A stretch of DNA of 64,000 nt from Bacillales bacterium UBA5026 (GTDB lineage Bacteria; Bacillota_I; Bacilli_A; RF39; UBA660), in assembly GCA_002416285.1 (NCBI GenBank), contig DICM01000034.1:274-64273 (forward strand), given 5' to 3'. How positions within the stretch are numbered: position 1 is the stretch's first letter; each line of letters opens with the position of its first letter. Both the position numbers and the translations under genes were made by a program. The notes beneath the pieces are model-generated. The model was not told the origin of the DNA. It did not search any database and saw only the letters and a list, made by a program, of their open reading frames with translations. This document shows positions 19,359 to 36,897 of the stretch, in pieces.

Positions 19359-19420
19359 GAAAATATTTCTATTTTCTTTTTTTATGTACCTTTATGAAAT
19401 GCAAAATTTGTCATATATTA

Positions 19421-19449: not shown

Positions 19450-19544
19450 TAGTGTATAAAATTGTAAAGTAGAAGAAAAAATATTGACGTAGTTAAAGTA
19501 TTGTGTCTTTTTTCTTTGACGATTCGGTAAGGGGAGAGAATAGC

Positions 19545-20315: not shown

Positions 20316-20332
20316 TAAAACTTCTTTTTTAT

Positions 20333-20358
20333 TAAAAAAAAATAGGATTTTTCCTATT
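20333..20358 (-). terminator. Terminator after the DUF2726 pseudogene
   Basis: Stem AATAGGA/TCCTATT, loop TTTT, and a long T-run on the minus strand. Confidence 0.6.
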
Positions 20359-20957: not shown

Positions 20958-21065
20958 CTTATTTTATCATCCCTTCAAAACAACAAACAACATACTACTA
21001 TAACTTATAACAATATTAATTGTAGCATAGAGTTCCTTGATTTAACAGAAGAGAATAAAAAAAGA

Positions 21066-21236
21066 CTAGAACCTTTTACAATTACCGTTACCACAATTAT
21101 TTCTACAATTACCACAACCACCACAGAGGCAATTAAAAATAAAATTAATAAATCCAAATATTAGAACAAATGGAAGAAATAAGAAACAAAATGGTAATAC
21201 AAAGATAAAGCCTAAAAATAATAATAATATACACAT
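21066..21236 (-). CDS. Small Cys-rich hydrophobic peptide (56 aa), not in the ORF track
   Basis: GAGGTA RBS followed by MCILLLFLGFIFVLPFCFLFLPFVLIFGFINFIFNCLCGGCGNCRNNCGNGNCKRF. Confidence 0.4.
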   Translation of the reverse strand: MCILLLFLGFIFVLPFCFLFLPFVLIFGFINFIFNCLCGGCGNCRNNCGNGNCKRF

Positions 21237-21335
21237 AAAAATACCTCTTTTACTATGTTATTTATTATATTAAATGTGGTAGATTTCATTTTGATAATAA
21301 CAGAGAACTATATTAGAAATCAATTTATTTTTATT

Positions 21336-21363
21336 AGTTAACATAATATAGACTAGCGAAACA
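21336..21363 (-). other. attL: hybrid dif-like site (intact XerD arm and central region, degenerate XerC arm)
   Basis: The minus strand reads TGTTTCGCTAG-TCTATA-TTATGTTAACT. The last 17 nt are identical to the dif at 29121-29148, and the XerC arm matches only 6 of 11. Confidence 0.7.
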
Positions 21364-21401
21364 AAAATGTTCTGATAAAATTTTTGAAAGGAGAATAGGG
21401 T

Positions 21402-21533
21402 ATGCTTATTGAAAAAATTACAATATCAAAATTAATTGAAATATTGCAAGAAATGAACGAACAACGAATGCATAGAAATACCGTGCTAGATGTTATAATT
21501 AAAATCAATAAAAAACAGTCAGCTTATGACTGA
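21402..21533 (+). CDS. Small prophage protein (43 aa)
   Basis: AAAGGAG RBS followed by MLIEKITISKLIEILQEMNEQRMHRNTVLDVIIKINKKQSAYD. Below the ORF-track cut-off. Confidence 0.4.
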   Translation: MLIEKITISKLIEILQEMNEQRMHRNTVLDVIIKINKKQSAYD

Positions 21534-21538
21534 CTGTT
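21514..21538. terminator. Shared hairpin between convergent small ORFs (T-run only on the minus strand)
   Basis: 9-bp stem AACAGTCAG/CTGACTGTT with a 7-nt loop. Confidence 0.55.
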
Positions 21539-21562
21539 GCAAACATGCTGCACTTAATATAT

Positions 21563-21655
21563 TTAAATAGAATTATATAATATAATTCCTATTATAATTA
21601 TCAATAGTGCTAGAAAGAAGAATTCTCGAAATTCTTTTTTTATTTTTTCAAACAT
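21563..21655 (-). CDS. 30-aa hydrophobic peptide (type I toxin-like or holin-like)
   Basis: GGAGGTG RBS followed by MFEKIKKEFREFFFLALLIIIIGIILYNSI, then the hairpin terminator. Confidence 0.4.
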   Translation of the reverse strand: MFEKIKKEFREFFFLALLIIIIGIILYNSI

Positions 21656-21720
21656 GTTGCACCTCCAATCTAGAAAAGTCTAAGACTTTTCCCCTAATCT
21701 TAAAATTCTAGATAGGAGTA

Positions 21721-21761
21721 TAGCTAGAGTGTGAGGCATTTTCCCACGAGCACTCTAGCTA
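21721..21761. other. Stable 11-bp hairpin upstream of the 30-aa peptide gene
   Basis: TAGCTAGAGTG - 19 nt - CACTCTAGCTA, unusually GC-balanced for this region. Confidence 0.5.
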
Positions 21762-21767
21762 ATAAAA

Positions 21768-21800
21768 TTTATATAAAAACCTGTACTAGCATTCTTATAT
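21768..21800. repeat. Copy A of a roughly 32-nt direct repeat (internally palindromic)
   Basis: TTTATATAAAAACCTGTACTAGCATTCTTATA. About 28 of 32 positions are identical to copy B. Confidence 0.6.
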
Positions 21801-21802
21801 CA

Positions 21803-21961
21803 TTATTTTTCTAATATTGCGAAAAAGGCATATGGCTGAAATGCATTTTTTGAAATGCTAAAATTTCCTGTTATGATTTTATATCCGTCATTAACTAATT
21901 CATTTAATTTTTTTTCGAATTGTTTTCCTTCGGTTAATAATAAAACTTTTACATCTTTCAT
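21803..21961 (-). CDS. Small prophage protein (52 aa)
   Basis: GAAAGGAG RBS followed by MKDVKVLLLTEGKQFEKKLNELVNDGYKIITGNFSISKNAFQPYAFFAILEK. Vaguely DUF4177-like; flanked by the 32-nt repeats. Confidence 0.45.
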   Translation of the reverse strand: MKDVKVLLLTEGKQFEKKLNELVNDGYKIITGNFSISKNAFQPYAFFAILEK

Positions 21962-21980
21962 TTTTCTACTCCTTTCATTA

Positions 21981-22012
21981 TTTATATAAAAATCTATACT
22001 AGCCTTTTTATA
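21981..22012. repeat. Copy B of the roughly 32-nt direct repeat
   Basis: TTTATATAAAAATCTATACTAGCCTTTTTATA, immediately after the XRE gene stop. Confidence 0.6.
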
Positions 22013-22014
22013 AC

Positions 22015-22245
22015 TTAAATATCTTTTCTTAATAAATCTTTTACTTGAAACTTTTCATTATTTCCAATGAAATAAATTTTATAACCACATTGATTAGCTA
22101 TGTTTTCTAGAGTTTCAAAATTAATGTCTGTTTTTTCTCTCTCATAATCACTTAAAGTAGTTCTTCCGATATTGACTAATTTACTTAGTTTTTCTTGGCT
22201 TAAATGACTGTTTGCTCGCATTTTTTTTATTGCCTTTCCTATCAT
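22015..22245 (-). CDS. XRE/Cro-CI-family HTH repressor of the prophage
   Basis: LSQEKLSKLVNIGRTTLSDYEREK is a canonical HTH_XRE motif. Divergent from the phage forward operon. Confidence 0.8.
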   Translation of the reverse strand: MIGKAIKKMRANSHLSQEKLSKLVNIGRTTLSDYEREKTDINFETLENIANQCGYKIYFIGNNEKFQVKDLLRKDI

Positions 22246-22274
22246 AAGTCCTCCTTTTCTTTATTGTCGCAAAA

Positions 22275-22337
22275 TTCCACAAAAAATACTTGACTTGTGG
22301 AGAAACTCGGAGTAAAATAATACATATAGATGTGGAG
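22275..22337 (+). promoter_or_regulatory. Forward phage promoter (TTGACT-17-TAAAAT) overlapped by three TGTGGAG-type half-sites
   Basis: -35 at 22290-22295 and -10 at 22313-22318. TTCCACA (22275-22281) is inverted relative to TGTGGAG (22296-22302), and a third TGTGGAG lies at 22331-22337. Confidence 0.6.
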
Positions 22338-22363
22338 TTATTCGACATCAGTAGGAGGAAAAA

Positions 22364-22645
22364 ATGAGAAAAATAAATAGTACAATAATTAATGCAGAAT
22401 TAAAACAAATACCAAACGAGAAAACAGGTGTTGTTAATGAATATACAACGGTAAAATATACCATGGAGCGAGAAAATAGCGATATTGCTGTTGGAGTTGC
22501 GATTATGGAATGCTGGATACCTAAGAATTGTCTTGATGCGATTAAAGGCTACATCATGAAACCAGTTCAAATGGAACTTAGAGAAATCTTTAATGATAAA
22601 GGTTGTAAATTTCGAATTTCAAAAATAAATAACAATGCAATTTAA
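22364..22645 (+). CDS. Prophage protein (93 aa); candidate ssDNA-binding protein by position and size only
   Basis: AGGAGG RBS. It is the first gene of the forward operon, where gene V sits in the circular map (Rep - attP - regulators - this gene - coat genes). Confidence 0.45.
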   Translation: MRKINSTIINAELKQIPNEKTGVVNEYTTVKYTMERENSDIAVGVAIMECWIPKNCLDAIKGYIMKPVQMELREIFNDKGCKFRISKINNNAI

Positions 22646-22880
22646 TGTTTTAGTTACTTACCGAAAACCGAATGGGAAAACACTTACTAGAGAATTGAGT
22701 AGCTGTGATTATAGAGTAGGGCATATCAACTCTTACGGTTGGGAAGTAATTGAGATACAAGTATTTTATCAAGGAAAATATATGCAACTAGAAACGTTTG
22801 AAAGATTACGTTACCAATATGACTATGAACGTCATAAAAAGAAGAGTATATTTTCTAAGTTTTCCAAAAAAAACAAATGA
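22635..22880 (+). CDS. Prophage hypothetical protein (81 aa)
   Basis: Its start overlaps the end of the upstream gene (22635 vs 22645), consistent with translational coupling. No recognisable motif. Confidence 0.45.
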   Translation: MQFNVLVTYRKPNGKTLTRELSSCDYRVGHINSYGWEVIEIQVFYQGKYMQLETFERLRYQYDYERHKKKSIFSKFSKKNK

Positions 22881-23423
22881 TGATAAATGTAATATGGGTG
22901 GTTAATTTTAAATGCTAGTAAAGGTTTGAAATTGAATAAAAATTATAAGTTAGTATTATAGCACTCCAATCTAGAAAATCACACAAGACTTAAATTTAAA
23001 GTACCTACTTACTATACTTTCTTAAAATCTATACAAGATTAGCAAAATACTTCGCTTATAAATAGGGTAAATAATAGGGAATTACATTATTATCAAAACT
23101 AAAAAAGGTTATCACAAAAAATCAGCAAGATATTATGCCGAGAAAATTATTTAAAAAAAGTCGTTTTTGATAAGCTGAAAGGCTAAAAAGATGCGAAACA
23201 TCAGAGGCATACCTCTTGATGATAGCAATCCACTTGTTACATCTTTAAAATCAAAAAAACGGTTACTTTTTTAAAATAAGGAATTGGAATAAATCAACAA
23301 GAAAAAACAAGATAACCTTATCGTTCAGCGAACGGGGTAAAATTTTGCTCAAGGGCTTAGCGAAGAAAAAACTTTCTACAATTTCTATAAGAAAAAGATA
23401 TTTTGAAAAGAGGGGAAAAACTT

Positions 23424-23567
23424 ATGACAGAAGTGCAGGCAACAACATTACTAGAAGAAATTACAACAATGAGAATCTTGCTTCAAGGAGTATGTGGAAT
23501 CTTAATGCTTGTGGTATTAGTAGCTGTAATATATGCCTTCTATAAGTTTTTCAAAATATTCTTTTAA
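23424..23567 (+). CDS. 47-aa coat-like membrane protein (minor or alternative coat)
   Basis: AGAGGGG RBS followed by MTEVQATTLLEEITTMRILLQGVCGILMLVVLVAVIYAFYKFFKIFF. Acidic N-terminus, TM core, basic tail. Missing from the ORF track. Confidence 0.5.
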   Translation: MTEVQATTLLEEITTMRILLQGVCGILMLVVLVAVIYAFYKFFKIFF

Positions 23568-23593
23568 AAAAGAGTGGAAAGGGGTTTTGAAAA

Positions 23594-23761
23594 ATGGAAG
23601 GAACAACTTCAATTTTTGACGGAGCTATCACATCAGCTACATTACAACCTGTTTTAGACGGTATTAAAGAATTACTACCAGTAGTAATTCCAGTAGCAGT
23701 AGGATTCTTAGCATTCCGTAAAGGTTGGTCATTTGTAATGTCAACCGTAAAAGGAGCGTAA
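23594..23761 (+). CDS. 55-aa putative major coat protein (Pf3-like architecture, no signal peptide)
   Basis: MEGTTSIFDGAITSATLQPVLDGIKELLPVVIPVAVGFLAFRKGWSFVMSTVKGA. Acidic N-terminal part, hydrophobic core of about 20 residues, and basic residues (R, K, K) in the C-terminal tail. Missing from the ORF track. Confidence 0.6.
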   Translation: MEGTTSIFDGAITSATLQPVLDGIKELLPVVIPVAVGFLAFRKGWSFVMSTVKGA

Positions 23762-23797
23762 GCTCTTCTTATAATAAAAGAAAGGACGTGAAGAAAA

Positions 23798-25423
23798 ATG
23801 AAAAAATTACTATTTGTAACAATCATTGCCTTCATGTCTTTTTTCTATATAGATAATGTAAACGCAGAAGAGATACAACATTTTACTTTGAATTATGATA
23901 ATCAAGAATTTAATGTTGATATACCTGTTAAATATTTACAAAATAATTATATTGGTACAATGTCTAAAAATAGTTCTACTGGTTCTTATCTTTTTCGATT
24001 ATTTTATGATTTTAATTATGTGGGTTTACGTTATTCAACAAGTGGAACGCAAAAAGATATTTCTTTTTATTTTAAAGATACTTCTGATGCAATAGATTCC
24101 GGTTCTGTAAATGCTTTAATTTATAATTTTACTACTAAAACATTTACAGAAGATTCTGGTGTTTATATTCCACGTTTTGCTTTAAATGATGAAATAACTG
24201 ATAATTATGTTCCCGTTGATTTTTTTATAAAATATGATAATAAAATTTATTTGGATGGGAGAAATATCAATTCTAATTTAACTTATAAAATAAATAATGT
24301 TGATTATAAAAAAGGTGATGAAGTTTTCTTTGGTGGTTCTTCAATAAGATTCGGTATTGTTGACTCAGAAACGGAAGTTATAAATGGAATAACTTATTAT
24401 AAGTCTAAAACAGTTCGTATGACATTGCAAGGAAAAAACAATACGAAATATTATTATGAATATACAACAGATAATGGAGCGAGTTGGATTACATTGTTAC
24501 TTACTCAAAAAGATTATTTTGATATTAAGTTTACTACAAATACAGTTTTGTTAGTAAGAATACGAGAACGTAATACGTTTGATGTGTTAAATGATTATAC
24601 ATTTACACTTTCCGGAATTGCGACTGACGAACTTACTAGTGAATATGAAGAAATTCCTTTAAGAGGGCATGAGGGTATTATTCTCTATGCAAAAAATACT
24701 TATCAAGATTTAATTTCTACAGTATATATGGAAACAGGAAATATCCATGTTACAAAATATTCAAATGGTAAAATTGTACAGCAAATGAGGGATATTGCAG
24801 TAGATTTTCAAGTAACATTAGGTCCACGCGATACAGATTATTATTTAATAAAAAATAATGATACAAGTATTAATACCGTATTACGCGTTTTGAAAGATAA
24901 ATTTGCTTATTATTATTTGAATGACGCGCTTAGTACGATTACAATTGAAAATCCAAATACGGGAGAGGCAGAAGTATTAGGGAGCATTTATGAGAGCGAA
25001 CAATACTATAAAGACCATGTTGAACAGGATTCGGACGTAGTTGAAAACAACTGGTTATTGAAAATCTTAAAAATGGCATTTGTTCCGGACTTAAGCGCGT
25101 TTAATAATTTAGTATCTATGTTTAACCGAAAGTTTGGAATCTTTTCACAGTTGGCAAGTACATTACCGGATTTGTTCCAGTTTGGGGGAGAAGACCCACC
25201 CGAATTTAATATGACAATTTACGGAACTACTGTTAATATTGTTGACTTTTCAGCATTTGAAATTGTACGTACATTCTTACACGGACTCATTCTCGCATTC
25301 GCATGGTATGGATTTATAAGACGTTGTTATGAACGAGCACCAGCATTTATAGGTGGATTCTTTAGCTTTGAACGTGCTGTTGGTGATATTTCTGTACCAA
25401 GTTCAAAAGGGGGTAAAAAATGA
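23798..25423 (+). CDS. Secreted 541-aa protein with a C-terminal membrane anchor (pIII-position adsorption/minor coat candidate)
   Basis: Signal peptide MKKLLFVTIIAFMSFFYIDNVNA/EE and a C-terminal hydrophobic helix LHGLILAFAWYGFIRR. Lies directly downstream of the coat-like genes. Confidence 0.55.
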   Translation: MKKLLFVTIIAFMSFFYIDNVNAEEIQHFTLNYDNQEFNVDIPVKYLQNNYIGTMSKNSSTGSYLFRLFYDFNYVGLRYSTSGTQKDISFYFKDTSDAIDSGSVNALIYNFTTKTFTEDSGVYIPRFALNDEITDNYVPVDFFIKYDNKIYLDGRNINSNLTYKINNVDYKKGDEVFFGGSSIRFGIVDSETEVINGITYYKSKTVRMTLQGKNNTKYYYEYTTDNGASWITLLLTQKDYFDIKFTTNTVLLVRIRERNTFDVLNDYTFTLSGIATDELTSEYEEIPLRGHEGIILYAKNTYQDLISTVYMETGNIHVTKYSNGKIVQQMRDIAVDFQVTLGPRDTDYYLIKNNDTSINTVLRVLKDKFAYYYLNDALSTITIENPNTGEAEVLGSIYESEQYYKDHVEQDSDVVENNWLLKILKMAFVPDLSAFNNLVSMFNRKFGIFSQLASTLPDLFQFGGEDPPEFNMTIYGTTVNIVDFSAFEIVRTFLHGLILAFAWYGFIRRCYERAPAFIGGFFSFERAVGDISVPSSKGGKK

Positions 25424-25674
25424 TAGTAACGATTATTATTAACCTTTTATTAGCACTTCCAACATTTTTACTTTCATTACTTCCGGATAATGTAGTAACT
25501 CTTCCAGATAATGTATTTAATATTATGCATGAAGTATTTTATGGGATTGGTTATGTGTTACCTATGGCTGGACTAGCTTCAATTATGGTAATTTCTACAG
25601 CGCTTATTGGAATGCAAATAACTTGGTCTATTATTTTGAGGATTAAGTCTTTTATACCAACAATGGGGGCATAG
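25420..25674 (+). CDS. 84-aa polytopic membrane protein (pVI position)
   Basis: Overlaps the upstream stop (ATGA). Has 2-3 TM segments. Confidence 0.5.
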   Translation: MIVTIIINLLLALPTFLLSLLPDNVVTLPDNVFNIMHEVFYGIGYVLPMAGLASIMVISTALIGMQITWSIILRIKSFIPTMGA

Positions 25675-25765
25675 TGCGTTGTTATTATGCGAACTTTAAG
25701 AGTTTAGTATTTGTTTATGTATTCGTGTACGTGAATAATTCCTAGGGGGTATTTTTTAAACCGCC

Positions 25766-25785
25766 ACACACGGAGTGTGTTTTAT
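25766..25785 (+). terminator. Weak internal terminator/attenuator between the structural and assembly genes
   Basis: ACACAC-GGA-GTGTGT followed by TTTTAT. Confidence 0.4.
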
Positions 25786-25811
25786 ATAGATTTTAGTTAG
25801 GAGGTAGAACT

Positions 25812-26657
25812 TTGTTAGTAGGATTTATAGGAGTATTAAAAATGCTCTTTGAATTAATCTTATGGTGTATTAAATGGGTAGGTATTGCACTTTTACCGAT
25901 TGTTATTATGATGATATATTTCTATATTCATTATTATATAAAAGGTTATCGTATGAAACCACGTACTACACCAGTTTATAAAAAACCGTCTTTCTTTAAA
26001 CGGCTTCTTATACAGTTTCCCAAGCGATTTATATTAGACCTCTTTGCACGTGACCCCGACGCATTTACGGATTACGGGGTGCATTTGGTCTGTGGAGAGC
26101 AGGGAAGCGGGAAAACTATGACGGTTGTCTATTTACTTCAAGAATATCAAAAACGGTTTCCTAAAATGAATGTGAAAACGAATTTTAATTATTTGAAACA
26201 AGACGATGAAATAACGCATTGGCGAGATATTGTATTTTCAAATAATGGAATCTATGGAGAAATTGACGTTTTAGACGAAATACAAACGTGGTTTAGTTCT
26301 ATGCAGTCACTCAATTTTCCAGTTGAAATGTTGCAAGAAATATCACAACAACGTAAACAAAGAAAAGCAATTTATGGAACAGCTCAAGTGTTTACAAAAA
26401 TAGGTAAGAGTATTCGGGAACAGACAACCTTTTTGTATCTTCCGATTACAATCGCAGGTTGTCTCACAATATGTCGAAAGTATGCCTTAAGACTTGATTC
26501 CGAGGGTCAGATTAAGGAAAAACATTTAAGACGAACATTTTTCTTTGTTCATACGGAAGAGCTTAGAAATAGCTATGATACGTATAAAAGAATCGAACGT
26601 TTGGCAAAAGACGGTTTTAAAGAGACAATTACAGATAAGATTATAGAAAGTAGGTAG
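25812..26657 (+). CDS. Membrane-anchored P-loop NTPase (pI/Zot-position morphogenesis ATPase candidate)
   Basis: N-terminal TM, Walker A GEQGSGKT, Walker B IDVLDEIQ. TTG start after AGGAGG; an alternative ATG lies at 25842. Confidence 0.6.
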   Translation: MLVGFIGVLKMLFELILWCIKWVGIALLPIVIMMIYFYIHYYIKGYRMKPRTTPVYKKPSFFKRLLIQFPKRFILDLFARDPDAFTDYGVHLVCGEQGSGKTMTVVYLLQEYQKRFPKMNVKTNFNYLKQDDEITHWRDIVFSNNGIYGEIDVLDEIQTWFSSMQSLNFPVEMLQEISQQRKQRKAIYGTAQVFTKIGKSIREQTTFLYLPITIAGCLTICRKYALRLDSEGQIKEKHLRRTFFFVHTEELRNSYDTYKRIERLAKDGFKETITDKIIESR

Positions 26658-26662
26658 ATTTA

Positions 26663-26863
26663 ATGACAAAAAAAGAATTTCTTAGTGATTTTATACATTA
26701 TTTAATTTTTACAGTTTTGTTTTTAATTTTGTTTAAAATCTTTAAGATTAAATTTTATGCCGTTGGTTATATTGTTAGTTTTGTTTTAACTTGTTCTAGT
26801 TTAGTTTATCATATAAAAATGTTATATCGTGAATATAAACTAAAAAAAGTAGAAAGTAGGTAG
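26663..26863 (+). CDS. 66-aa membrane protein
   Basis: Two TM segments. Preceded by the junction motif GAAAGTAGGTAG. Confidence 0.45.
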   Translation: MTKKEFLSDFIHYLIFTVLFLILFKIFKIKFYAVGYIVSFVLTCSSLVYHIKMLYREYKLKKVESR

Positions 26864-26868
26864 GTTTT

Positions 26869-27132
26869 ATGGTTGATGGTTTTGAATTTATAGTTTCGTG
26901 CGTTTTTTGTTTTACTTTGGGTACTGTATTTGGTGGAACTTTTGATTATAAAAAAACGTATTCAAAATATGATAAACTTAGAAATTTTTATAATTTTCTA
27001 AAAGTAAATGGTTATATTGTCGCAAAAAGCGAAAAAGAAATTGTACTTGCTTTTTTGAAAAAAGAAGAATCACAGCATGAAACAATTTGTAATGAAGTTA
27101 AATATAAAATGTTTAAGGATGATGTTTTATGA
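26869..27132 (+). CDS. Prophage hypothetical protein (87 aa)
   Basis: N-terminal TM. Preceded by the junction motif GAAAGTAGGTAG. Confidence 0.45.
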   Translation: MVDGFEFIVSCVFCFTLGTVFGGTFDYKKTYSKYDKLRNFYNFLKVNGYIVAKSEKEIVLAFLKKEESQHETICNEVKYKMFKDDVL

Positions 27133-27347
27133 TAGAAGAACGTCTGAAAGAAAAAATTGACTTGGTTTTATTCGATTATTATTTTAATAATAAATTATCA
27201 TGGTTTGATAGTAAAATTATTGATTTTTTAGTAAGAAAAAAGAAGTATAAGGATTATGCCTTAATTCGTATTAAGTATTACATACGACAAGTCAAAAATG
27301 ATAATTTTTGGAGTCTTCTAGTCTCGCTAGACCATGTGCGTGCCTAA
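27129..27347 (+). CDS. Prophage hypothetical protein (72 aa)
   Basis: Its ATG lies within an ATGA overlap with the upstream stop. Its 3' end runs into the GC-rich island. Confidence 0.4.
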   Translation: MIEERLKEKIDLVLFDYYFNNKLSWFDSKIIDFLVRKKKYKDYALIRIKYYIRQVKNDNFWSLLVSLDHVRA

Positions 27348-27405
27348 TGTTTCCGGGGTCCCAGTGGGAGTTTGGAAACATGGGCCGGAAATGGGTCCCA
27401 AAATA
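27320..27405. other. GC-rich structured island (nested inverted repeats, GGGTCCCA x2)
   Basis: ATGTTTCC (27347-27354) pairs with GGAAACAT (27374-27381). TTTCCGG (27350-27356) pairs with CCGGAAA (27385-27391). GGGTCCCA occurs at 27356-27363 and 27393-27400. Confidence 0.55.
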
Positions 27406-27427
27406 GGTTGAAAGTAGGTGATTTTGA

Positions 27428-27625
27428 ATGAAAAAGAATTTAATGCTACAACTTCTTTTAGATTTTCTATTTTTGGCTTTAGCAATCGCAATAATTCTAT
27501 GGCTTAAAAACATGTTTGTAACTATTACACTTTTATTGTATTTTGCTTTCTTACTGTTTGTTGATTTCTGTAATTTTCGGAAAGCAAAGAAGCAAAAATC
27601 GACTGTAGTTGATATAGTTGAGTAA
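27428..27625 (+). CDS. 65-aa membrane protein
   Basis: Two TM segments. Preceded by TGAAAGTAGGTGA. Confidence 0.4.
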   Translation: MKKNLMLQLLLDFLFLALAIAIILWLKNMFVTITLLLYFAFLLFVDFCNFRKAKKQKSTVVDIVE

Positions 27626-27722
27626 TTATACCAGGTCATCAAAGACTAAATACTATACAAAACAAGATAATTTACAGTATAAAAGCGATAAATTAACGTA
27701 TTTAAAAGGACTACAAGGAACA

Positions 27723-27745
27723 CCGGCGCGTCGTGAGACGCCCGG
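27723..27745. other. GC-rich hairpin with a GTGA tetraloop just upstream of the Rep ATG
   Basis: CCGGCGCGTC-GTGA-GACGCCCGG (9 bp plus one bulge) in an otherwise AT-rich context. Confidence 0.55.
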
Positions 27746-27800
27746 ATGTTCTTTACTTGATAGTAGTCTCATATCTCCACACCCCTTAAAAGTTTATTCC

Positions 27801-28748
27801 ATGAAAATAATTGAAACTGGCGATTTTATAGAAGTTTATGATTATAACGATATTAAAACTCGAAAAGATGTAAACTTTGAAAAAATTGAACGAAAAAAAA
27901 TAAAAGGAATTAAACGTAGCTTTGAAACAAAAGAAATAGGAAAGTGGGGGAGTCATTCTACATTATTAGAAAATGGTTCTATAACATTTATTAATTATCA
28001 AAAGATTCAAACGAAGTATGCTTTAGAACATATGAATAATGAAACGTTTGTAATTCGCGATTCTGTTCCAAAAGAAAAGAAAATTGAGCTGAAGAATATT
28101 CTTCGTAGTAAGTTTGCTATGGAACGTATTGTAAAAGCAAATATGAATGAATTTAAAACATTTATCACATTAACATTTGCAGAGAATATCATTAATATTG
28201 ATGAGGCAAATAAAAAGTTCGACACATGGCGAACTCATATAAAAGCATTAAAAAGAGACTTTAAATATGTCTGTGTTCCGGAATTTCAAAAGTTAAGAGA
28301 ACGAAAAACCGGATATGCAGTAGTACATTATCATTTACTAACTAATTTAGACATAATTAAAGACTCGGATATTATTATATCACAAAAAGAATTTACAGAA
28401 AAACAGTTGCTAGAAATGAGCGGACGGCAACGTAGTAAATGTTATGATGTACGTTATTGGAATTATGGCTTTGTTAGAGTCGATACATTAAAAGATATGA
28501 ATGTAGTAGGGTATATATCAAAGTACATGACGAAAGACATAGATAATAGGCTTTGGGGAAAACGACGTTATCTATATAGTCAAAATTTAAAAAAACCTAG
28601 TGTATCATATTTAAACTTTAGTAATATTGAAGATTTTAAACATTATGTAAATAATTTGAATGGCTTTGAATTGAATTTTGAAAAGGTGTATGCTGATAAA
28701 TTCGGACAGGCAATAGAATATAAAGAATACAAGAAAGTAGGCGCTTAA
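27801..28748 (+). CDS. HUH rolling-circle replication initiator (Rep)
   Basis: Motif I FITLTF, motif II (HUH) VVHYHLLTN, motif III GYISKYMTKD. The track ORF extends to a TTG at 27618, so the N-terminus is uncertain. Confidence 0.7.
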   Translation: MKIIETGDFIEVYDYNDIKTRKDVNFEKIERKKIKGIKRSFETKEIGKWGSHSTLLENGSITFINYQKIQTKYALEHMNNETFVIRDSVPKEKKIELKNILRSKFAMERIVKANMNEFKTFITLTFAENIINIDEANKKFDTWRTHIKALKRDFKYVCVPEFQKLRERKTGYAVVHYHLLTNLDIIKDSDIIISQKEFTEKQLLEMSGRQRSKCYDVRYWNYGFVRVDTLKDMNVVGYISKYMTKDIDNRLWGKRRYLYSQNLKKPSVSYLNFSNIEDFKHYVNNLNGFELNFEKVYADKFGQAIEYKEYKKVGA

Positions 28749-28942
28749 TGAAAAAAATGCTGTTATTAATTGTAATTATCATTTTATTCACCGGATGTAC
28801 TTTTAAAAAATGTATAAAGTCTCATGAAATAGAAACTACTTGTACGAAATATACTTATATATCAAACGGAAAAACACTTTTTGCCGTTCCGGTTGATAAT
28901 TACTCATATGTTAAAACTGTTTGTGATGAATATGAAAAATAA
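28748..28942 (+). CDS. Small prophage lipoprotein (64 aa)
   Basis: Lipobox ILFTGC. Preceded by AGAAAGTAGGCGC; its ATG abuts the Rep stop (TAATG). Confidence 0.55.
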   Translation: MKKMLLLIVIIILFTGCTFKKCIKSHEIETTCTKYTYISNGKTLFAVPVDNYSYVKTVCDEYEK

Positions 28943-28959
28943 AAGGAGAAAAATTCAGT

Positions 28960-29103
28960 ATGTATAAAATCGAAATGCAAGACTTAACTACAAAAGAGAT
29001 ATTTAGTCGAGTTACAGATAGTCTGTACAAAATAGAACGTCTCAAAAAGAGATGTAGATATTCTAAGAAAGTTAAAATAAGAGCTATTACAAAGTTAACA
29101 TAA
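28960..29103 (+). CDS. Small basic prophage protein (47 aa)
   Basis: AAAAGGAG RBS followed by MYKIEMQDLTTKEIFSRVTDSLYKIERLKKRCRYSKKVKIRAITKLT. Last gene before dif. Confidence 0.4.
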   Translation: MYKIEMQDLTTKEIFSRVTDSLYKIERLKKRCRYSKKVKIRAITKLT

Positions 29104-29120
29104 ATTTAAGAATATATATT

Positions 29121-29148
29121 AGTTAACATAATATAGATTATCGGAAGT
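29121..29148 (-). other. dif: Chromosomal dif site (XerC arm - 6-nt centre - XerD arm), serving as prophage attR
   Basis: The minus strand reads ACTTCCGATAA-TCTATA-TTATGTTAACT. This matches 24 of 28 positions of the B. subtilis dif as I recall it (ACTTCCTAGAA-TATATA-TTATGTAAACT). It lies at the point where the gene-strand bias switches. Confidence 0.8.
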
Positions 29149-29877
29149 TATTGATGTGCTTACATTTAAGTGCTATTATATTGCTTTATACTATAAAAAT
29201 TAGCTTTTAAATCGTTCAATTATTCCAATATAATACTTAATATTATGTTTATCCATTATGATATGCTTATCTAGAAATATGTACTAAATAATATAAATGT
29301 CTTGTTCAGTTAAATAATAATATAAATAATAATATTTCTATATTCAACAATTCATTATATTTACTACATATACACTTAGTCATACATTTCATTGTCCTAA
29401 ATCCGTTTATTAGAATATTTTTTCAATTTCAATATAAATTATTACTTCTATCCTATAATTAAAATAATTTGAGCTGATAAGTTATTCACTAAGATCTTTC
29501 TCGAATGCTCTCAGAACGCCTATCAAAACACTTTAATATAAAATACTCAAATACCTTGCTACACACAATGAGGTAAAATAATAAAATTAACTTATAATTA
29601 AATTATAAAGTAGGGGAAATAGATTGGAAAAGAGCAGAAAAAAATTTTAACTATTCCCTACTTTTTAAATTAATAACTTAACATAATTTATTTGTATCTA
29701 AAGCAGATTATTTATCTTATCTATAAATCTATCTATATTGTTTTTAAAACAAATAGGAAGGAGATTTAAGCTTGTTTATTAGATCTACTCTACCCTAGTT
29801 TCAATCGTTTCTTAACTCCCCTACTTGTAATTTTTCATAATTCGTCATTCTTTTTCATATTCTTTAATGGTGATAAT

Positions 29878-30621
29878 ATGGACAAGATTATGTTTCCGTT
29901 TATTCTAACAAGTTTAGCTGGTTTATCAACAATGATTGGGTGTATCTTTCTTTATATAAAGCCTAAAAAAGAAAATCATGTCATTATCAGTGGTCTATCA
30001 TTTGCCGCTGCAGTAATGATAACTGTTTCTTTTACAGATTTATTACCTGAATCTTTTAGCTTACTTAAAATGATTTATAAACCATTTCCAATGGTAATTT
30101 TAGTGTTAATATCATTAAATATTGGAATGTTGATATCATTCTTATTGGATAAATATCTTCCAAACCAGGAGGAATCTCTTTATCGTGTAGGTATTATCTC
30201 TATGTTAGCTATTATTATTCATAATATTCCTGAAGGTATTGCAACCTATATGGCTGGATCAACCAATACTAATTTAGGAATTACATTAGCTGTTGCTATC
30301 GCATTACATAATATTCCTGAAGGTATCAGTATTTCTATTCCAATTTATTATGCAACAAAAAGTAGGAAAAAAGCACTATTATATACTTTTATATCCGGAT
30401 TATCAGAACTATTTGGTGCTATATTTACCTATTTATTTTTGAAATCATTTATTAATAATCAAATACTAGGATTCCTGTTTGCGGGAATCGCAGGTATTAT
30501 GTTACATATTGCACTTTATGAATTATTACCAACTGCTTGGAAATATAAGAATAAAAAATTAGTATATTTATTTTTTCTTATAGGGTTCTTATTTATGCTC
30601 ATTAATCATATTATTTTTTAA
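29878..30621 (+). CDS. zupT: ZIP-family zinc transporter ZupT
   Basis: The HNIPEGIA / HNIPEGIS motif occurs twice, with about 8 TM segments. Confidence 0.85.
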   Translation: MDKIMFPFILTSLAGLSTMIGCIFLYIKPKKENHVIISGLSFAAAVMITVSFTDLLPESFSLLKMIYKPFPMVILVLISLNIGMLISFLLDKYLPNQEESLYRVGIISMLAIIIHNIPEGIATYMAGSTNTNLGITLAVAIALHNIPEGISISIPIYYATKSRKKALLYTFISGLSELFGAIFTYLFLKSFINNQILGFLFAGIAGIMLHIALYELLPTAWKYKNKKLVYLFFLIGFLFMLINHIIF

Positions 30622-30624
30622 GTA

Positions 30625-30647
30625 AAAAAGAGACTAAGTCTCTTTTT
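30625..30647. terminator. Bidirectional terminator
   Basis: 10-bp stem AAAAAGAGAC/GTCTCTTTTT, loop TAA. Confidence 0.75.
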
Positions 30648-30651
30648 GGGT

Positions 30652-30852
30652 TTAACGAAGTTCGAATGAATGATCGTCATTGTCATCTAATTCAAATGAA
30701 TGAGAGTCATTATCAAATCCAATTGTTTTATCTTGTTTGTTTGTAACTTTATTGGATTTTGAACTATTCGTTACATTTGAACGATTACAGTTTGTTACAT
30801 TATTGTTATTTTTGTTTGTAACATTAGCATTATTCTTATTTGCTTTTTTCAT
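30652..30852 (-). CDS. Asn-rich repetitive small protein (66 aa)
   Basis: GGGTGA RBS. Contains NVTN x3 plus KVTN, and a tandem D-rich DSHSFEL / DDHSFEL C-terminus. Confidence 0.5.
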   Translation of the reverse strand: MKKANKNNANVTNKNNNNVTNCNRSNVTNSSKSNKVTNKQDKTIGFDNDSHSFELDDNDDHSFELR

Positions 30853-30968
30853 CTTTCATCACCCATTAATAATATGGACAAAAGCATAAAAAATATAGTT
30901 GGAAAAATATGTTATTTGTTATTTTTTTATTTTTACATATATTAATAGTATGAATTGTTTTTTTTAAA

Positions 30969-31406
30969 TTATTTCAAACTGCTTCTAATCATCCATAATT
31001 CTTTGTCAAAGTACATATTTTGATCTGTCAACATAGAACTAGTATATAGATCATTTTCCTTAGAAAATTCAAGTGCGAGATCCTTAGAATATTCTGTGAT
31101 AAAACCAAAGTCATTCTCTAATACTTCTAAGACTTGTTGTCCCGTAAAGTCCATACTTCGCATTGATTTAAAAGTTGAAATTTCTTCGATTTTAGGCAGA
31201 GATGTCTCTGGATATCCACCTAACATTTTGATGCGTTCTGCAGTAGCATCATAAAACTTTCCAATCATTTCATAGTATTCTTGTAATTTTCGATGTAATC
31301 CAAAAAATGAACTTCCGACTATATTAAAATGCATATTGTAGAGATTATTTTCTAAGACTTTTAAATTGGCCATGTACTCATTTAAAATTTGATAGTTTTG
31401 TTTCAT
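30969..31406 (-). CDS. dps: Dps-family DNA-protection / ferritin-like protein
   Basis: LNEYMANLKVLENNLYNMHFNIVGSSFFGLHRKLQEYY fits the Dps ferroxidase-region pattern. Start set after GGGAGG. Confidence 0.8.
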   Translation of the reverse strand: MKQNYQILNEYMANLKVLENNLYNMHFNIVGSSFFGLHRKLQEYYEMIGKFYDATAERIKMLGGYPETSLPKIEEISTFKSMRSMDFTGQQVLEVLENDFGFITEYSKDLALEFSKENDLYTSSMLTDQNMYFDKELWMIRSSLK

Positions 31407-31442
31407 AAAAAAGCCTCCCATACTAATATATGAGAGACTAGC

Positions 31443-32114
31443 CTAATAAGTTTCTAAAAGTCGTAACTTTTTGCGTTCTTGTAACGGTATTTGTCTAGAT
31501 TCAATACATTTTTGAATCGTTTTTCGATAAGTCCAAGCGTCTAGTAATTTAATATAGTTCATCGCCAACTCTGCATTTTTTACATATGCCATCGACATAA
31601 GCCATGCGATTGCCATTTTAACATAATAGTGCTGATTATTAAGTATAACTAACCTTTTTAAGATATCTTCAAAATAATCTGTATTTAAATAATAGTTCAA
31701 ATACATCACAATAGCAAACCGGACGACAAAAGGATTATCATTTAATAATAACGTTTCTAAATAAGAATACCCATCATCAAGCCAATTTTTCCAACCTTTA
31801 AAAGAGCTCGACAACAAATCTGTCGTCTCCCAATTATCAAAACTGAGAAATGCCTTTTCTAATTGTTTACAAAAATCAAATCTAGTCAAATTCATCGAAC
31901 TTAAACTAAATCCATAGATTAAAATTGATTCACGTGAATTAAAAATAATATTTTTCCAAAAATCAGAATTCTCACTTAATAGTTTTTTAGTAATATTTTT
32001 TAGTGCTGGAACTCGAACACCAATAATCGGATATTTTGTCTGTACAAGACGTTCTGTAAATGCTTTATATTTTTTATCTTGATATGGTAAGAGGATATCT
32101 GTTAAATCCATCAT
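31443..32114 (-). CDS. DNA alkylation repair protein (AlkD-like HEAT-repeat family)
   Basis: 223 aa. The N-terminal pattern YQDKKYKAFTERLVQTKYPIIGVRVPALKNI is typical of this family. Confidence 0.65.
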   Translation of the reverse strand: MMDLTDILLPYQDKKYKAFTERLVQTKYPIIGVRVPALKNITKKLLSENSDFWKNIIFNSRESILIYGFSLSSMNLTRFDFCKQLEKAFLSFDNWETTDLLSSSFKGWKNWLDDGYSYLETLLLNDNPFVVRFAIVMYLNYYLNTDYFEDILKRLVILNNQHYYVKMAIAWLMSMAYVKNAELAMNYIKLLDAWTYRKTIQKCIESRQIPLQERKKLRLLETY

Positions 32115-33481
32115 AACAAACCATTTAAAATATCAGTAAATTCTGTTTGAAGTTCTTCTAATCGTTCTTTTGTAGTCGCTTCAAAACGCACAGTTAAATC
32201 AGGTCCAGTATTAGAAGCTCGTACTAAAGCCCAACTATCTTCAAAATTTACTCGGACACCATCGATATCAATGATAGAATATCCTTTATCAATTGCGTAA
32301 TTTTTTATTCCGGTTACGATATCAAATTTCTTCTCATCGGTTGTTCGAATTTTTATTTCTGGTGTTGATTCGTAGTGAGAGATATTCTCTAATAATGCAC
32401 TCATGGGTTCTTCTATATTCGTCAAGATTTCAAGCAGCCTAAGTCCTGCATAAATTCCATCGTCAAACCCAAGAAATCGATCACGAAAGAATACATGACC
32501 GGAGTATTCACCACCAAAATCAAAATCCCCTTCTTGCATCATCATATTTGTATAAGAATTACCCGTACGATACATAACTGGTTCAAGTCCCAATTCTTTT
32601 ACACCATCGATTAAGGTCTTTGAACACTTCACATCAAACAATGCTTTTTTATTATGCATATTTTTAACAATATTGCGATAAATCATAAGCATATATAAAT
32701 CAGCAGATAAAATTGTTCCATTTTCATCAACGACCCCTACTCGATCGGCATCGCCATCAATACCAAAACCAAAGTCTAATTTCATTTCTTTAACGGTATC
32801 ACTTAATGTAACCATATTTTCTGGGACAGCAGGATCAGAAGGATGATTTGGGAATGTTCCATCACTCTCACAGAAAAGTGGCACATAATCGACGTTTAAA
32901 GCCTTTAAAACGTCATTTATAATAATCGATCCAGTTCCATTCCCACAATCGACTGCAATCTTTCTTTTATATGGTCCAAGGTGAATTGATTTCTTCAAAT
33001 ATTCGACATATAAATTATAAATATTAAAATTAATAATTCGTCCACTACCCTCTTTAAAATCCCCTGCAAATGTATAGTCACGAAAATCATAAATTAATTT
33101 TCCGTAAGCATTTCCTATATCCGAAAAAGCGATTTTAAAACCGTTTTGATCCTTTGGATTATGACTGGCAGTAATCATAACACCAGTATTTTTTTTAAGA
33201 TGTTTTCTTGCATAGTAATACATAGGAGTCGTAACAATTCCTAAATCTATAATGTTCATTCCACTATCTACAACCCCCTGAATAAAGCCTCTTGATAGTG
33301 TTGGAGAAGATAGCCGATTGTCATGTCCAACTAGAGTTTCGGTTTCTCCAAAACCTTGTATGTATGAACCAAAACTTTTACCCAAAGTGTAAGCAACATC
33401 TTCTGTTAAGTCTTGCCCATAGACACCTCTTAAATCATATTCACGAAATATATTTGAATTTATTTCTTTTGTTATTTGCAT
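32111..33481 (-). CDS. Phosphomannomutase/phosphoglucomutase-family enzyme
   Basis: Active-site loop GVMITASHNPKDQNGFK and the metal loop GIDGDADR. Confidence 0.88.
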   Translation of the reverse strand: MQITKEINSNIFREYDLRGVYGQDLTEDVAYTLGKSFGSYIQGFGETETLVGHDNRLSSPTLSRGFIQGVVDSGMNIIDLGIVTTPMYYYARKHLKKNTGVMITASHNPKDQNGFKIAFSDIGNAYGKLIYDFRDYTFAGDFKEGSGRIINFNIYNLYVEYLKKSIHLGPYKRKIAVDCGNGTGSIIINDVLKALNVDYVPLFCESDGTFPNHPSDPAVPENMVTLSDTVKEMKLDFGFGIDGDADRVGVVDENGTILSADLYMLMIYRNIVKNMHNKKALFDVKCSKTLIDGVKELGLEPVMYRTGNSYTNMMMQEGDFDFGGEYSGHVFFRDRFLGFDDGIYAGLRLLEILTNIEEPMSALLENISHYESTPEIKIRTTDEKKFDIVTGIKNYAIDKGYSIIDIDGVRVNFEDSWALVRASNTGPDLTVRFEATTKERLEELQTEFTDILNGLL

Positions 33482-33495
33482 TTTACTCTTCCTCT

Positions 33496-34392
33496 CTATT
33501 CTCCATGTGGATGGTAAGTTTGATAATTTTGCTCTAAAAAATGGTCTGATAAGTGAGTATAAATCTGTGTAGTTGAAATATCGGTATGTCCCAGTAATTC
33601 CTGAACACTTCTTAAATCAGCGCCATTTTCTACAAGATGGGTTGCAAATGAATGCCGTAAAGTGTGTGGTGACAATTCTTTTTTTATGCCTTGCTCTGTT
33701 GCAATCTGTCTCACTATTTTAAAAAATGCTTGTCTTGTCATCGAACTTCCTCGACTACTCAAAAACAAATCATCATTAAGCTCTCTTTTCAAAAGTTGAC
33801 TACGATAATCCACAAGATAGATTGATAGGGCTGCTAAAGCATAATCGCCAATTGGAATAATCCGTTCTTTATTTCCTTTACCGAATACTTTTACAGTCGC
33901 CATCTCTAAATTCACATCATGAACCTTTAAATGAATTAGCTCACTAATTCTAAGTCCAGAAGCATACATCAATTCAAGCATGGTTTTATTTCTAAAATCA
34001 TATTTGGTTTTTAATGGAAAACTTAATAATTTATCTACTTCCTCATGCGTAAGCACTTTAGGAAGTACCTTTTTTAGTTTTGGTTGAGCTATCCCATCAA
34101 TTGGGTTTTCCTTTGTAATTTTTTCAATCTTCAAATATTTATAAAATTGTCTTAGTACTGTTAATTTATGTGCAATACTTCGCTCATCATTTTTCATTAA
34201 ATCCAAGTACTTAAGGTAGTTTCGAATAACTGTTTTATCAATTTGTTCAAGTGTGTTCAAATTCAATTTATCTAAGAATTCAATAAATTGATCCAAATCG
34301 TTTTCATACGATTTTTTTGTATTCACACTGTATTTGCGATCAATTAATAAATAATTTAAAAAGTCTTGTTCCAATTCTTTTATCATATTCAT
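33496..34392 (-). CDS. xerD: Tyrosine site-specific recombinase, XerD/XerC type
   Basis: 298 aa. Catalytic pattern: GLRISEL (Arg), HTLRHSFATHL (H-x-x-R), LLGHTDISTTQIYTHL (His and Tyr). Confidence 0.85.
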   Translation of the reverse strand: MNMIKELEQDFLNYLLIDRKYSVNTKKSYENDLDQFIEFLDKLNLNTLEQIDKTVIRNYLKYLDLMKNDERSIAHKLTVLRQFYKYLKIEKITKENPIDGIAQPKLKKVLPKVLTHEEVDKLLSFPLKTKYDFRNKTMLELMYASGLRISELIHLKVHDVNLEMATVKVFGKGNKERIIPIGDYALAALSIYLVDYRSQLLKRELNDDLFLSSRGSSMTRQAFFKIVRQIATEQGIKKELSPHTLRHSFATHLVENGADLRSVQELLGHTDISTTQIYTHLSDHFLEQNYQTYHPHGE

Positions 34393-34497
34393 CTACCCTA
34401 TAATCATTATACAATAGAAATAGGTATTTTTCACGTATAAAGCCAAAATTATCCGAAAAGTTGACAAAAAATGTGCTAAAATGGTGATGGTGATATT

Positions 34498-35709
34498 ATG
34501 AATGAACCTTTAGCAATCAAGTTAAGACCAACTTGCTTAGATGAAATTATCGGTCAACAGCATCTCGTTGGAGAAAATCAAATTTTTAGAAACCTTGTGA
34601 ACAATAAGCGACTTTTCTCTATGATTTTGTACGGAAAACCAGGTATCGGAAAAACAACGATTGCTCTAGCGATTGTTCAAGAATTAAAATTACGTTATCG
34701 AATGTTAAATGCGGTCATTCATAGTAAAAAAGATTTTGATATCGTTATCGAAGAAGCGAAGATGTATGGTAGTATGATTGTCATTATGGATGAGATTCAT
34801 CGTTTAAATAAAGATAAACAGGATCTATTACTTCCCTATTTAGAGAGTGGTTTAGTTACATTAATCGGAATGACAACATCTAATCCTTATCACAAAATTA
34901 ATCCAGCAATTCGAAGTAGATGTCAAATATTTGAATTAAAAGAGTTGACAGAGGATGATATTGTTCTAGCAATTCAAAAGGCTGTTGCTTCCTCACTTTT
35001 AGCGTCGATTTCGATCGATGAAGAAAGTATTCATTATATAGCTACTCTATCCGGTGGTGATTTACGGTTTGCATATAATCTTTTAGAGATGGCTTACTAC
35101 TCTTCTAATGGAAAAATCGACTTAGAATTATTGAAAAAAATTAATACAAAACCAGTATTTTTTCACGATAAAAATGATGATGGTCATTATGATGTTATCA
35201 GTGCTTTTCAAAAATCAATTCGTGGTAGTGATGCGAATGCTGCTTTGCATTATTTAGCAAGACTAATTGAGGCTGGAGATCTAGATATTATTTATCGACG
35301 TATGACCGTTATTGCTTATGAAGATATCGGTCTTGCAAATCCATCGATGGGTCCTAAGGTAGATGCAGCTATCAATGCTTGTGAACGATTAGGTTTACCA
35401 GAAGCCAGAATCCCACTTGCAGATGTCGTTGTTGAATTAGCATTATCGCCTAAATCAAATAGTGCTCATTTGGCACTCGACATGGCGATTAATGACATTC
35501 ATAAAGGGAACGTTGGGAACGTTCCACCACATCTTAGAACTTCATCTCCAGATTATAAATACCCCCATAATTATCCTAATGCTTTTGTAAAACAACAATA
35601 TCTTCCAGATAATCTCAAAGGAAAAAAATATTATCAACCGAAAACAACTAGTAAATATGAACAATCATTAAAACAAGTGTATGATAAAATAGATGAATTA
35701 CAAAAATAA
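34498..35709 (+). CDS. rarA: Replication-associated recombination protein A (AAA+)
   Basis: Walker A GKPGIGKTT, Walker B IVIMDEIHR, and the MgsA C-terminal domain (YDVISAFQKSIRGSD). Confidence 0.9.
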   Translation: MNEPLAIKLRPTCLDEIIGQQHLVGENQIFRNLVNNKRLFSMILYGKPGIGKTTIALAIVQELKLRYRMLNAVIHSKKDFDIVIEEAKMYGSMIVIMDEIHRLNKDKQDLLLPYLESGLVTLIGMTTSNPYHKINPAIRSRCQIFELKELTEDDIVLAIQKAVASSLLASISIDEESIHYIATLSGGDLRFAYNLLEMAYYSSNGKIDLELLKKINTKPVFFHDKNDDGHYDVISAFQKSIRGSDANAALHYLARLIEAGDLDIIYRRMTVIAYEDIGLANPSMGPKVDAAINACERLGLPEARIPLADVVVELALSPKSNSAHLALDMAINDIHKGNVGNVPPHLRTSSPDYKYPHNYPNAFVKQQYLPDNLKGKKYYQPKTTSKYEQSLKQVYDKIDELQK

Positions 35710-35718
35710 TTTCAAATC

Positions 35719-35746
35719 AAAGCGATGATTATAATCATCGCTTTTG
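35719..35746 (+). terminator. Terminator after rarA
   Basis: 10-bp stem AAGCGATGAT/ATCATCGCTT, loop TATA, then TTT. Confidence 0.7.
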
Positions 35747-35873
35747 TAAGTCTCATATAAATTGAAATGTATTATAGTTTTTGTCAATTAATCATTATAA
35801 TTACATAAAATTTGACAAATAGAAAGTTTTGATGTATTATAACAACATTTTCATGAAAAAAGGGGGAGTTTTG

Positions 35874-36077
35874 GTGAAATTAAACTATAATAAAATTATT
35901 TATCTAACATTACATTCTGTAGCAGTAGGACTATTAATTATTCTGTCATGCTTATTATTATTTACAAATTATGTAATGTATACATATTTATCATTCTTTA
36001 CTACATATGCACTGGGAATCTTACTAATTAAAAAGATTCATAAATATCCATTATGGATTCAAAAAGGAAACAATTAA
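35874..36077 (+). CDS. Small membrane protein (67 aa)
   Basis: GTG start 5 nt after AAGGGGGAG. Two TM segments. Confidence 0.4.
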   Translation: MKLNYNKIIYLTLHSVAVGLLIILSCLLLFTNYVMYTYLSFFTTYALGILLIKKIHKYPLWIQKGNN

Positions 36078-36088
36078 ATGTTTCCTTT

Positions 36089-36859
36089 TTATATCGTATG
36101 AGTCAAAAATGAAAGTAAAGAATTAAAATCAATTTTTAAGAAAAACAGAATCATCGCACCAACTGCCAAAAAAGGGCCGAATGGAATAATATGATCTTTT
36201 TTCTTATATAGAATAATTAAAGATATCGGTAATCCAATAAACGATGCAATGAATATAGCAATGATTGTCATCTCATATCCAAGAACTAACCCAAATAGAA
36301 ACATTAACTTAATGTCTCCTCCCCCCATCGATTCTTGCTTGAATAGAAAATCACCAAACTTTTTCAATAAAAACATAATAAGAAAAGCAGCAACACCATT
36401 CAACAGTGCGATTCCCAATTGATTCCATCCACTTTTTAAGAATATTTCAATTGATAACATTACTACTGATACAATCAATATCTCATCTGGAATAATCATT
36501 GTTTGATAATCACTAATAATTATTATTAATAATGTAGAAACAAATGTTAGTGCAATTGCTAGATCAATTGAAAAACCAAAAATAAGATATGATAATGAGA
36601 ATAACAAGCCTGTTGTAAGTTCAAAAATTGGATAGAACAAAGAGATTCCTTGCTTACAGTTTTTGCACTTTCCTCCTAAGAATAAATAAGAGAATACAGG
36701 TATTAATTCACTTGCTCCAAGGCGATGTCCACAATTTGGACAATGGCTCGGCGGGGATACAATTGATTCCCCTTTTGGTAAACGATACCCTACTACATTG
36801 TAAAAAGAACCTAATACAATGCCAAAGAGAAATAAAACGACTGTGTAATAAATTTCCAT
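36089..36859 (-). CDS. Prepilin peptidase (A24 family, PilD/ComC)
   Basis: Zinc-ribbon CPNCGHRL...CKNCKQ, and GGGDIKL containing the second catalytic Asp. Confidence 0.88.
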   Translation of the reverse strand: MEIYYTVVLFLFGIVLGSFYNVVGYRLPKGESIVSPPSHCPNCGHRLGASELIPVFSYLFLGGKCKNCKQGISLFYPIFELTTGLLFSLSYLIFGFSIDLAIALTFVSTLLIIIISDYQTMIIPDEILIVSVVMLSIEIFLKSGWNQLGIALLNGVAAFLIMFLLKKFGDFLFKQESMGGGDIKLMFLFGLVLGYEMTIIAIFIASFIGLPISLIILYKKKDHIIPFGPFLAVGAMILFFLKIDFNSLLSFLTHTI

Positions 36860-36897
36860 TTAGCCACTCCTTAATAAGAAAAGGAATTCTCATTCCT

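Follow-up and report, generated by a model that had tools for sequence, protein, structure and literature searches.

Genomic context of the locus

The window analysed here, a stretch of 64,000 nucleotides (G000:C26:274-64273), belongs to a draft genome of 39 contigs, 1.50 Mb and 30% GC (G000), whose estimated completeness is ~72%, with 3% contamination. A 28-bp dif-type site and a small prophage that abuts it lie between a left part with genes mostly on the plus strand and a right part with genes mostly on the minus strand. The main features of the locus are as follows:

1..21335, plus strand: probable end of one replichore; genes mostly on the plus strand, GC skew +0.06
19503..20315, plus strand: gene for a 270-aa HTH protein, conserved left neighbour of dif; only weak N-terminal HTH matches
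21336..21363, minus strand: hybrid dif-like site, TGTTTCGCTAG-TCTATA-TTATGTTAACT, at the far junction of the element, with the degenerate XerC arm TGTTTCGCTAG
21364..29120, plus strand: inovirus-like prophage of 7.8 kb with Rep, Zot-like and coat-like ORFs; flanks insert-free in relatives
29121..29148, minus strand: very probable chromosomal dif site; XerC arm ACTTCCGATAA at 29148-29138, centre TCTATA at 29137-29132, XerD arm TTATGTTAACT at 29131-29121
29149..64000, minus strand: probable end of the other replichore; genes mostly on the minus strand, GC skew -0.15
33496..34392, minus strand: xerD (TIGR02225, 351.5 bits; cutoff 329.6), 4.3 kb from dif

Sequence and uniqueness of the 28-mer

The first-pass annotation had proposed a canonical dif on the minus strand at 29121-29148, and the 28-mer ACTTCCGATAA-TCTATA-TTATGTTAACT is present there as it was quoted, with the 11-6-11 architecture and the ATAA/TTAT inner-arm dyad. 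The B. subtilis and E. coli sites that the annotation had used for comparison agree exactly with those of Kono et al. 2011 (PMC3025954), where the experimentally confirmed B. subtilis dif is given as ACTTCCTAGAATATATATTATGTAAACT and the E. coli dif as GGTGCGCATAATGTATATTATGTTAAAT. Against that listing the proposed match to B. subtilis holds at 9/11 positions of the XerC arm, 5/6 of the centre and 10/11 of the XerD arm, i.e., 24/28 identical positions over the whole experimentally defined site, and the XerD arm matches that of E. coli at 10/11 positions, also as claimed.

A site of this quality is not expected by chance. From the base composition of the assembly (35% A, 35% T), 0.003 28-mers with at most four mismatches to the B. 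subtilis dif are expected on both strands of the whole 1.5-Mb assembly, and one was observed; the next-best match has seven mismatches. The genome-wide search that had been proposed as a check returned a single full dif match in the assembled 1.5 Mb, so that uniqueness holds for the assembled part (~72%) of the genome. The only other similar 28-mer in the assembly, at 21336-21363, is the hybrid junction of the element.

Skew, gene orientation and the position of the terminus

GC skew was assessed contig by contig across the 39-contig draft, in place of one full-chromosome plot. Thirty-odd contigs exhibit a monotonic G-C walk with an absolute skew of 0.13-0.22, and a large internal maximum is found on C26 alone, the contig of the window; it rises 766 counts above the contig ends and adjoins dif, as the first-pass annotation had predicted. 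The maximum falls at C26:29431 (window 29158), 10 bp beyond the 28-mer, and the cumulative GC skew within the window is highest at 29-30 kb. Since an internal maximum marks the terminus in either contig orientation, the maximum on C26 indicates the terminus. The matching origin signal is found on C16, where dnaA (TIGR00362, 502 bits) lies 350 bp from an internal walk minimum at 2921, the minimum being upstream of the gene. We also considered C33 as the terminus and rejected it: its internal maximum reaches only 213 counts, its genes are of mixed orientation and its best dif-like match has at least seven mismatches.

Gene-strand counts were taken from a greedy non-overlapping ORF set. Left of the accessory region (1-21335) they amount to 19 plus and 6 minus, the same as the approximate figure of the first-pass annotation, while to the right (29149-64000) the strong minus bias that it described is confirmed but not its count of about 33 in 38, the present set giving 5 plus and 30 minus. 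Counted from dif out to the contig end, the right side holds 7 plus and 57 minus genes, and the accessory element itself 11 plus and 3 minus ORFs. The walk is monotonic over 21 kb in the left arm, where the skew is weak, and over 60 kb in the right arm.

The precision of 10 bp is partly due to the prophage, because the element left of dif is transcribed on the plus strand with a skew of +0.154, which pushes the maximum to its right edge. With the flanks joined in silico without the element, an identical 28-mer is regenerated and the maximum moves to a position 1,039 bp left of it; positions within 30 counts of the maximum form a plateau in which the reconstituted dif is still included. Thus, the skew switches within ~1 kb of dif with or without the element.

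The same inversion is seen in polar oligomers. On the contigs other than C26 the most skewed oligomers are AAGAGGGA (66:2), AGAGGGAA (60:2) and AGAGGGA (125:6), and the classical motifs GGGNAGGG and GAGAAGGG occur there at 19:1 and 10:1. A set of 73 strongly skewed 8-mers, chosen on those contigs, counts 54 plus and 20 minus on C26 left of dif vs 36 plus and 177 minus right of it, with the flip between the bins 24.7-29.7 kb and 29.7-34.7 kb. The KOPS-like inversion anticipated by the first-pass annotation is thus present at dif, but it is not independent of gene orientation, as the polarity follows the coding strand: inside lagging-strand genes it is lost or reversed, on tiny counts. An AGAGGGA-type guide motif is not claimed here, because AGAGGGA is the top of a generally skewed A3G4 class (range 0.67 to 0.95) whose polarity tracks gene orientation. 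GC skew behaves likewise, with +0.194 in leading-strand genes vs -0.095 in lagging-strand genes, and 88% of coding bases are on the leading strand. GC skew and polar oligomers both mostly follow gene orientation and are therefore not independent evidence; together with the gene-strand bias they are largely one signal, that of gene and replication co-orientation, which inverts at dif.

Xer and FtsK machinery

Genes for Xer, FtsK and DnaA were located by local motif scans and then confirmed with NCBIfam models. Besides the xerD of the window, the genome encodes XerC on C10 (TIGR02224, 335.7 bits; cutoff 335.15) and, on C3, an FtsK homolog of 743 aa with a C-terminal winged-helix gamma-domain segment. 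The best score of the XerS model, 113 bits, is below its cutoff of 267, and a third tyrosine recombinase, on C19, is phage-integrase-like.

By homology, and following the E. coli/B. subtilis XerCD/dif model, XerC would bind the ACTTCCGATAA arm and XerD the TTATGTTAACT arm of the site. The two dif copies of a chromosome dimer would be brought together at the septum by the FtsK-family translocase, and two pairs of sequential strand exchanges, catalysed by XerCD at the borders of TCTATA, would separate the monomers.

Tight linkage of a recombinase gene to dif is seen more typically in the XerS and XerH systems, which have a single recombinase. A XerD homolog lies less than 10 kb from dif in 16/22 loci of relatives, class-level relatives included. 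Kono et al. 2011 (PMC3025954) report an origin-proximal location for xerD genes in general.

The dif locus in related genomes

The relatives were scanned with the degenerate site ACTTCCNANAATNTATATTATGTWAACT, allowing up to two mismatches. The motif was found exactly once in 29/41 related genomes, and the reversed pattern, used as a control, gave no match in the 41. The consensus of the sites of 28 relatives is ACTTCCTATAATATATATTATGTTAACT; the dif of the window matches it at 26/28 positions, keeps all invariant columns and differs only at two variable ones. This family-level consensus can serve for a group of small, low-GC uncultured Firmicutes. Skew was examined over ±10 kb in 20 loci of relatives: it changes from positive on the left to negative on the right in 18 of them, and the local walk maximum is at most 350 bp from the motif in 14. 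The angle between dif and the origin was measured in closed relatives only, where the distance from dif to dnaA is 49.6% of the chromosome in G034, 50.3% in G038 and 44% in G026, the last with a DnaA match below the cutoff.

Across the family dif is embedded in a syntenic block, in which spoIIM, mnmA and the 270-aa HTH gene precede it, and ZupT/Dps/Pgm, XerD and RarA follow. In other genera dif alone separates the same flanking genes: in G024 the HTH gene is followed by 530 bp, dif, 440 bp and ZupT, and in G011 the gaps are 275 bp from the HTH gene to dif and 191 bp from dif to ZupT. These insert-free loci with the same flanks indicate that dif is ancestral at this place and that the 7.8-kb block of the window is an insertion.

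The same loci bear on the possibility that the 28-mer is only a phage attR imitating dif, the working host site lying in another part of the genome, possibly within the ~28% that is unassembled. The 28-mer does abut a prophage, whose other end duplicates the XerD arm and the centre, and the genome is incomplete. However, the XerC arm lies on the host side, insert-free relatives carry the same single-copy motif between the same flanks at the skew switch, and the skew maximum of the draft itself is at the 28-mer, which makes this explanation very improbable.

Conserved gene order likewise bears on a second alternative, that this is not the true terminus and the switch in strand and skew is an artefact of local origin, due to a mis-join of the metagenome assembly at the prophage or to a recent inversion. 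The assembly is a MAG with some contamination, mobile elements are common mis-join points, and C33 also has a small internal walk maximum. On the other hand, the gene order on both sides of the dif of the window is that of the block in more than 12 related genera, with dif in the same place, the arms are monotonic over their whole 21 and 60 kb, and C33, with its mixed gene orientation, has no dif-like site. We consider an artefact very unlikely.

The observed sequence of the site, its uniqueness in the assembly, its position at the skew and strand switch, the encoded Xer machinery and its conservation in relatives together lead us to conclude with high confidence that 29121-29148 on the minus strand is the dif of this chromosome, situated at the junction of the two replichores, and that the window spans the replication terminus. 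The placement of the terminus at the gene-strand switch, as first suggested from the window, is supported by the skew maximum, the strand counts, the Xer genes and the relatives. With the terminus fixed on C26 and the origin (dnaA) on C16, a replichore direction can be assigned to all 39 contigs.

The HTH gene has a homolog in 16 loci of relatives (L016-L032, L043, L044 range) and is transcribed toward dif in all of them, with a gap to dif of 8-1311 bp in 12/16 and often of 8-500 bp. This proximity may be plain synteny, or the protein may bind DNA in a role tied to the terminus or to dif. The HTH gene and dif are on the same strand in 13/16 relatives and on opposite strands in the window, G011, G016 and G037, a pattern indicating that the 28-mer has been inverted several times inside an otherwise conserved block.

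Two further stretches between the HTH gene and dif deserve mention. In the locus L026 (G016:C6) 7.5 kb separate the two, dif has the opposite orientation as in the window and no Rep homolog is present; this gap is possibly a different element integrated at dif. In the window itself, the region 20316-21335 between the HTH gene and the left hybrid site is of low GC (~26%) and holds a 152-aa ORF (20499-20957, minus strand), for which no family match and no homolog in the dif loci of relatives were found. An older insertion at dif may have left this region behind.

Comparison with the B. subtilis and E. coli sites

The dif of B. subtilis is reportedly paired with the recombinases CodV (XerC) and RipX (XerD) (Sciochetti et al. 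2001). The system described here shares with it the 28-bp 11-6-11 layout, the AT-rich centre, two paralogous tyrosine recombinases and the position of the site at the skew switch of a low-GC Gram-positive genome carrying sporulation genes (in the window, spoIIM at 17576-18205), and differs in two bases of the XerC arm, one of the centre and one of the XerD arm. It also differs in the linkage of xerD to dif, 4.3 kb in the window; in B. subtilis, ripX is not known to lie near dif. Moreover, a search of the genome (~72% complete) for an RTP-type terminator (PF02334) found none, and one FtsK/SpoIIIE-type translocase was identified in it, which are further differences from B. subtilis, to be read with the incompleteness of the genome in mind.

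With E. coli the site shares the XerD arm at 10/11 positions and the inner palindrome ATAA...TTAT, and the genome the FtsK with a gamma domain, whereas the XerC arm is unrelated in sequence and the whole site has seven mismatches. As with the KOPS of E. coli, G-rich polar oligomers converge on dif, their polarity here being inseparable from gene orientation.

An inovirus-like element inserted at dif

A dif at the terminus is a textbook, ordinary feature, here in an uncharacterised lineage, and the inserted small filamentous prophage is the more notable finding, for which dif serves mainly as an anchor. Insertion at a real, conserved dif is the premise for calling the element a Xer-exploiting prophage. 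The element contains the following features:

22015-22245, minus strand: XRE repressor; HTH_3 match
23403-23761, in the plus-strand element: small TM coat-like hydrophobic ORFs
23798-25423, in the plus-strand element: 541-aa secreted/TM protein
25812-26657: Zot-like P-loop protein; weak Zot-like matches (PHROGs)
27618-28748: rolling-circle Rep; PF23343 REP_ORF2-G2P, 59.6 bits (cutoff 27.8); phrog_3419
29093..29103, minus strand: third copy of the XerD-arm 11-mer TTATGTTAACT, 17 bp inside the prophage beside dif

No recombinase was found among the larger ORFs of the element with Pfam and PHROGs, and a tyrosine-recombinase motif scan of the genome gave none inside 21364-29120. The nearest matches of Rep in the phage database, to small rodent-faeces viruses and Clostridium phage phiSM101, have 25-33% identity. 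We refrained from naming a phage relative of the element from Rep, matches at this identity being too remote.

The element is flanked in direct orientation by dif and the hybrid site, both on the minus strand. The two sites share a 21-nt identical repeat (21332-21352 = 29117-29137); their centre and XerD arm are identical at 17/17 positions, and all five mismatches are in the XerC arm, of which 5 of 11 positions differ. Among the altered positions are 1, 8 and 11, at which the 28 relatives show no variation, and the arm bases beside the centre read CTAG in place of ATAA. Although the identical centre and XerD arm, and a skew maximum that without the element is nearer to the left site, would suit a reading in which 21336-21363 is the functional dif or both sites are used equally, the altered XerC arm with its three broken invariant positions and its CTAG beside the centre renders that extremely unlikely.

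On the preferred reading, in which the right-hand site is the dif of the chromosome, the element would have integrated at dif and left the hybrid with its poor XerC arm at 21336-21363, while a full dif would have been regenerated on the side that kept the host XerC arm. The present dif is also the right-hand junction of the element, made of the host-side XerC arm and an XerD arm that after integration would be element-derived, and it would be the competent site. The 11-mer TTATGTTAACT occurs three times in the whole 1.5-Mb assembly, each time at the dif locus, and 0.19 occurrences are expected from shuffles of the window. The third copy, at 29093-29103, could be a putative extra XerD-binding half-site of the phage attP or the scar of an earlier integration.

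Judged from its sequence, the element is built like an IMEX (integrative mobile element exploiting Xer), as it is flanked directly by dif and a dif-like site and has no detected recombinase of its own. Known IMEXs include CTXphi, VGJphi and TLCphi of Vibrio and the gonococcal genetic island (2017 Xer review, PMC5357621). Those in that review are from Proteobacteria only, and it lists no example of a Xer-exploiting prophage in a Gram-positive-type host (PMC5357621). We found no Gram-positive IMEX in the literature searched, although one may have been described. The present element is like the described ones a filamentous-phage-type element at dif with the same direct flanks and no detected recombinase, and differs from them in its host, a Gram-positive-type Firmicute, and in the extra XerD-arm copy 17 bp inside the element. 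In TLCphi and the gonococcal genetic island the XerD arm diverges, whereas here the presumed attP diverges in the XerC arm and is identical in the centre and the XerD arm.

Homologs of Rep are present in 7/150 genomes of the family. In two other genera, G002 and G072, a Rep homolog is at most 400 bp from a full dif, and in G072 a Zot-like gene lies beside it. A filter-based look for a hybrid site beside these two Rep-bearing elements found none. We lean towards the view that inovirus-like phages without a recombinase repeatedly dock at the dif of this Gram-positive-type lineage by means of the host XerCD, via a type of attP outside the described classes. Such an attP would consist of a centre and XerD arm identical to those of the host, together with an XerC arm that diverges and an additional XerD-arm copy whose start is 28 bp from that of the first. 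Repeated Xer-mediated traffic of this kind might be the cause of the several flips of dif orientation in the family.

A second Rep homolog in the same genome (G000:C19:1183-4157, outside the window) has 44% identity and one in-frame TAA. A phage-type tyrosine integrase is encoded ~1.2 kb away, and the locus looks like another inovirus-like element, possibly decayed, which would use its own integrase rather than Xer. In a relative (L046, G136:C13:18348-21743), two Rep homolog copies with identical scores are arranged in tandem, 2.8 kb apart, with no dif-like site within the stretch examined.

On the right side of the window, a gene for a PilC/GspF-type platform protein with an N-terminal extension of ~230 aa (36898-38799, minus strand) indicates that type IV or competence pilus genes are located near the terminus. 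Speculatively, such a pilus could be the receptor for the filamentous phage.
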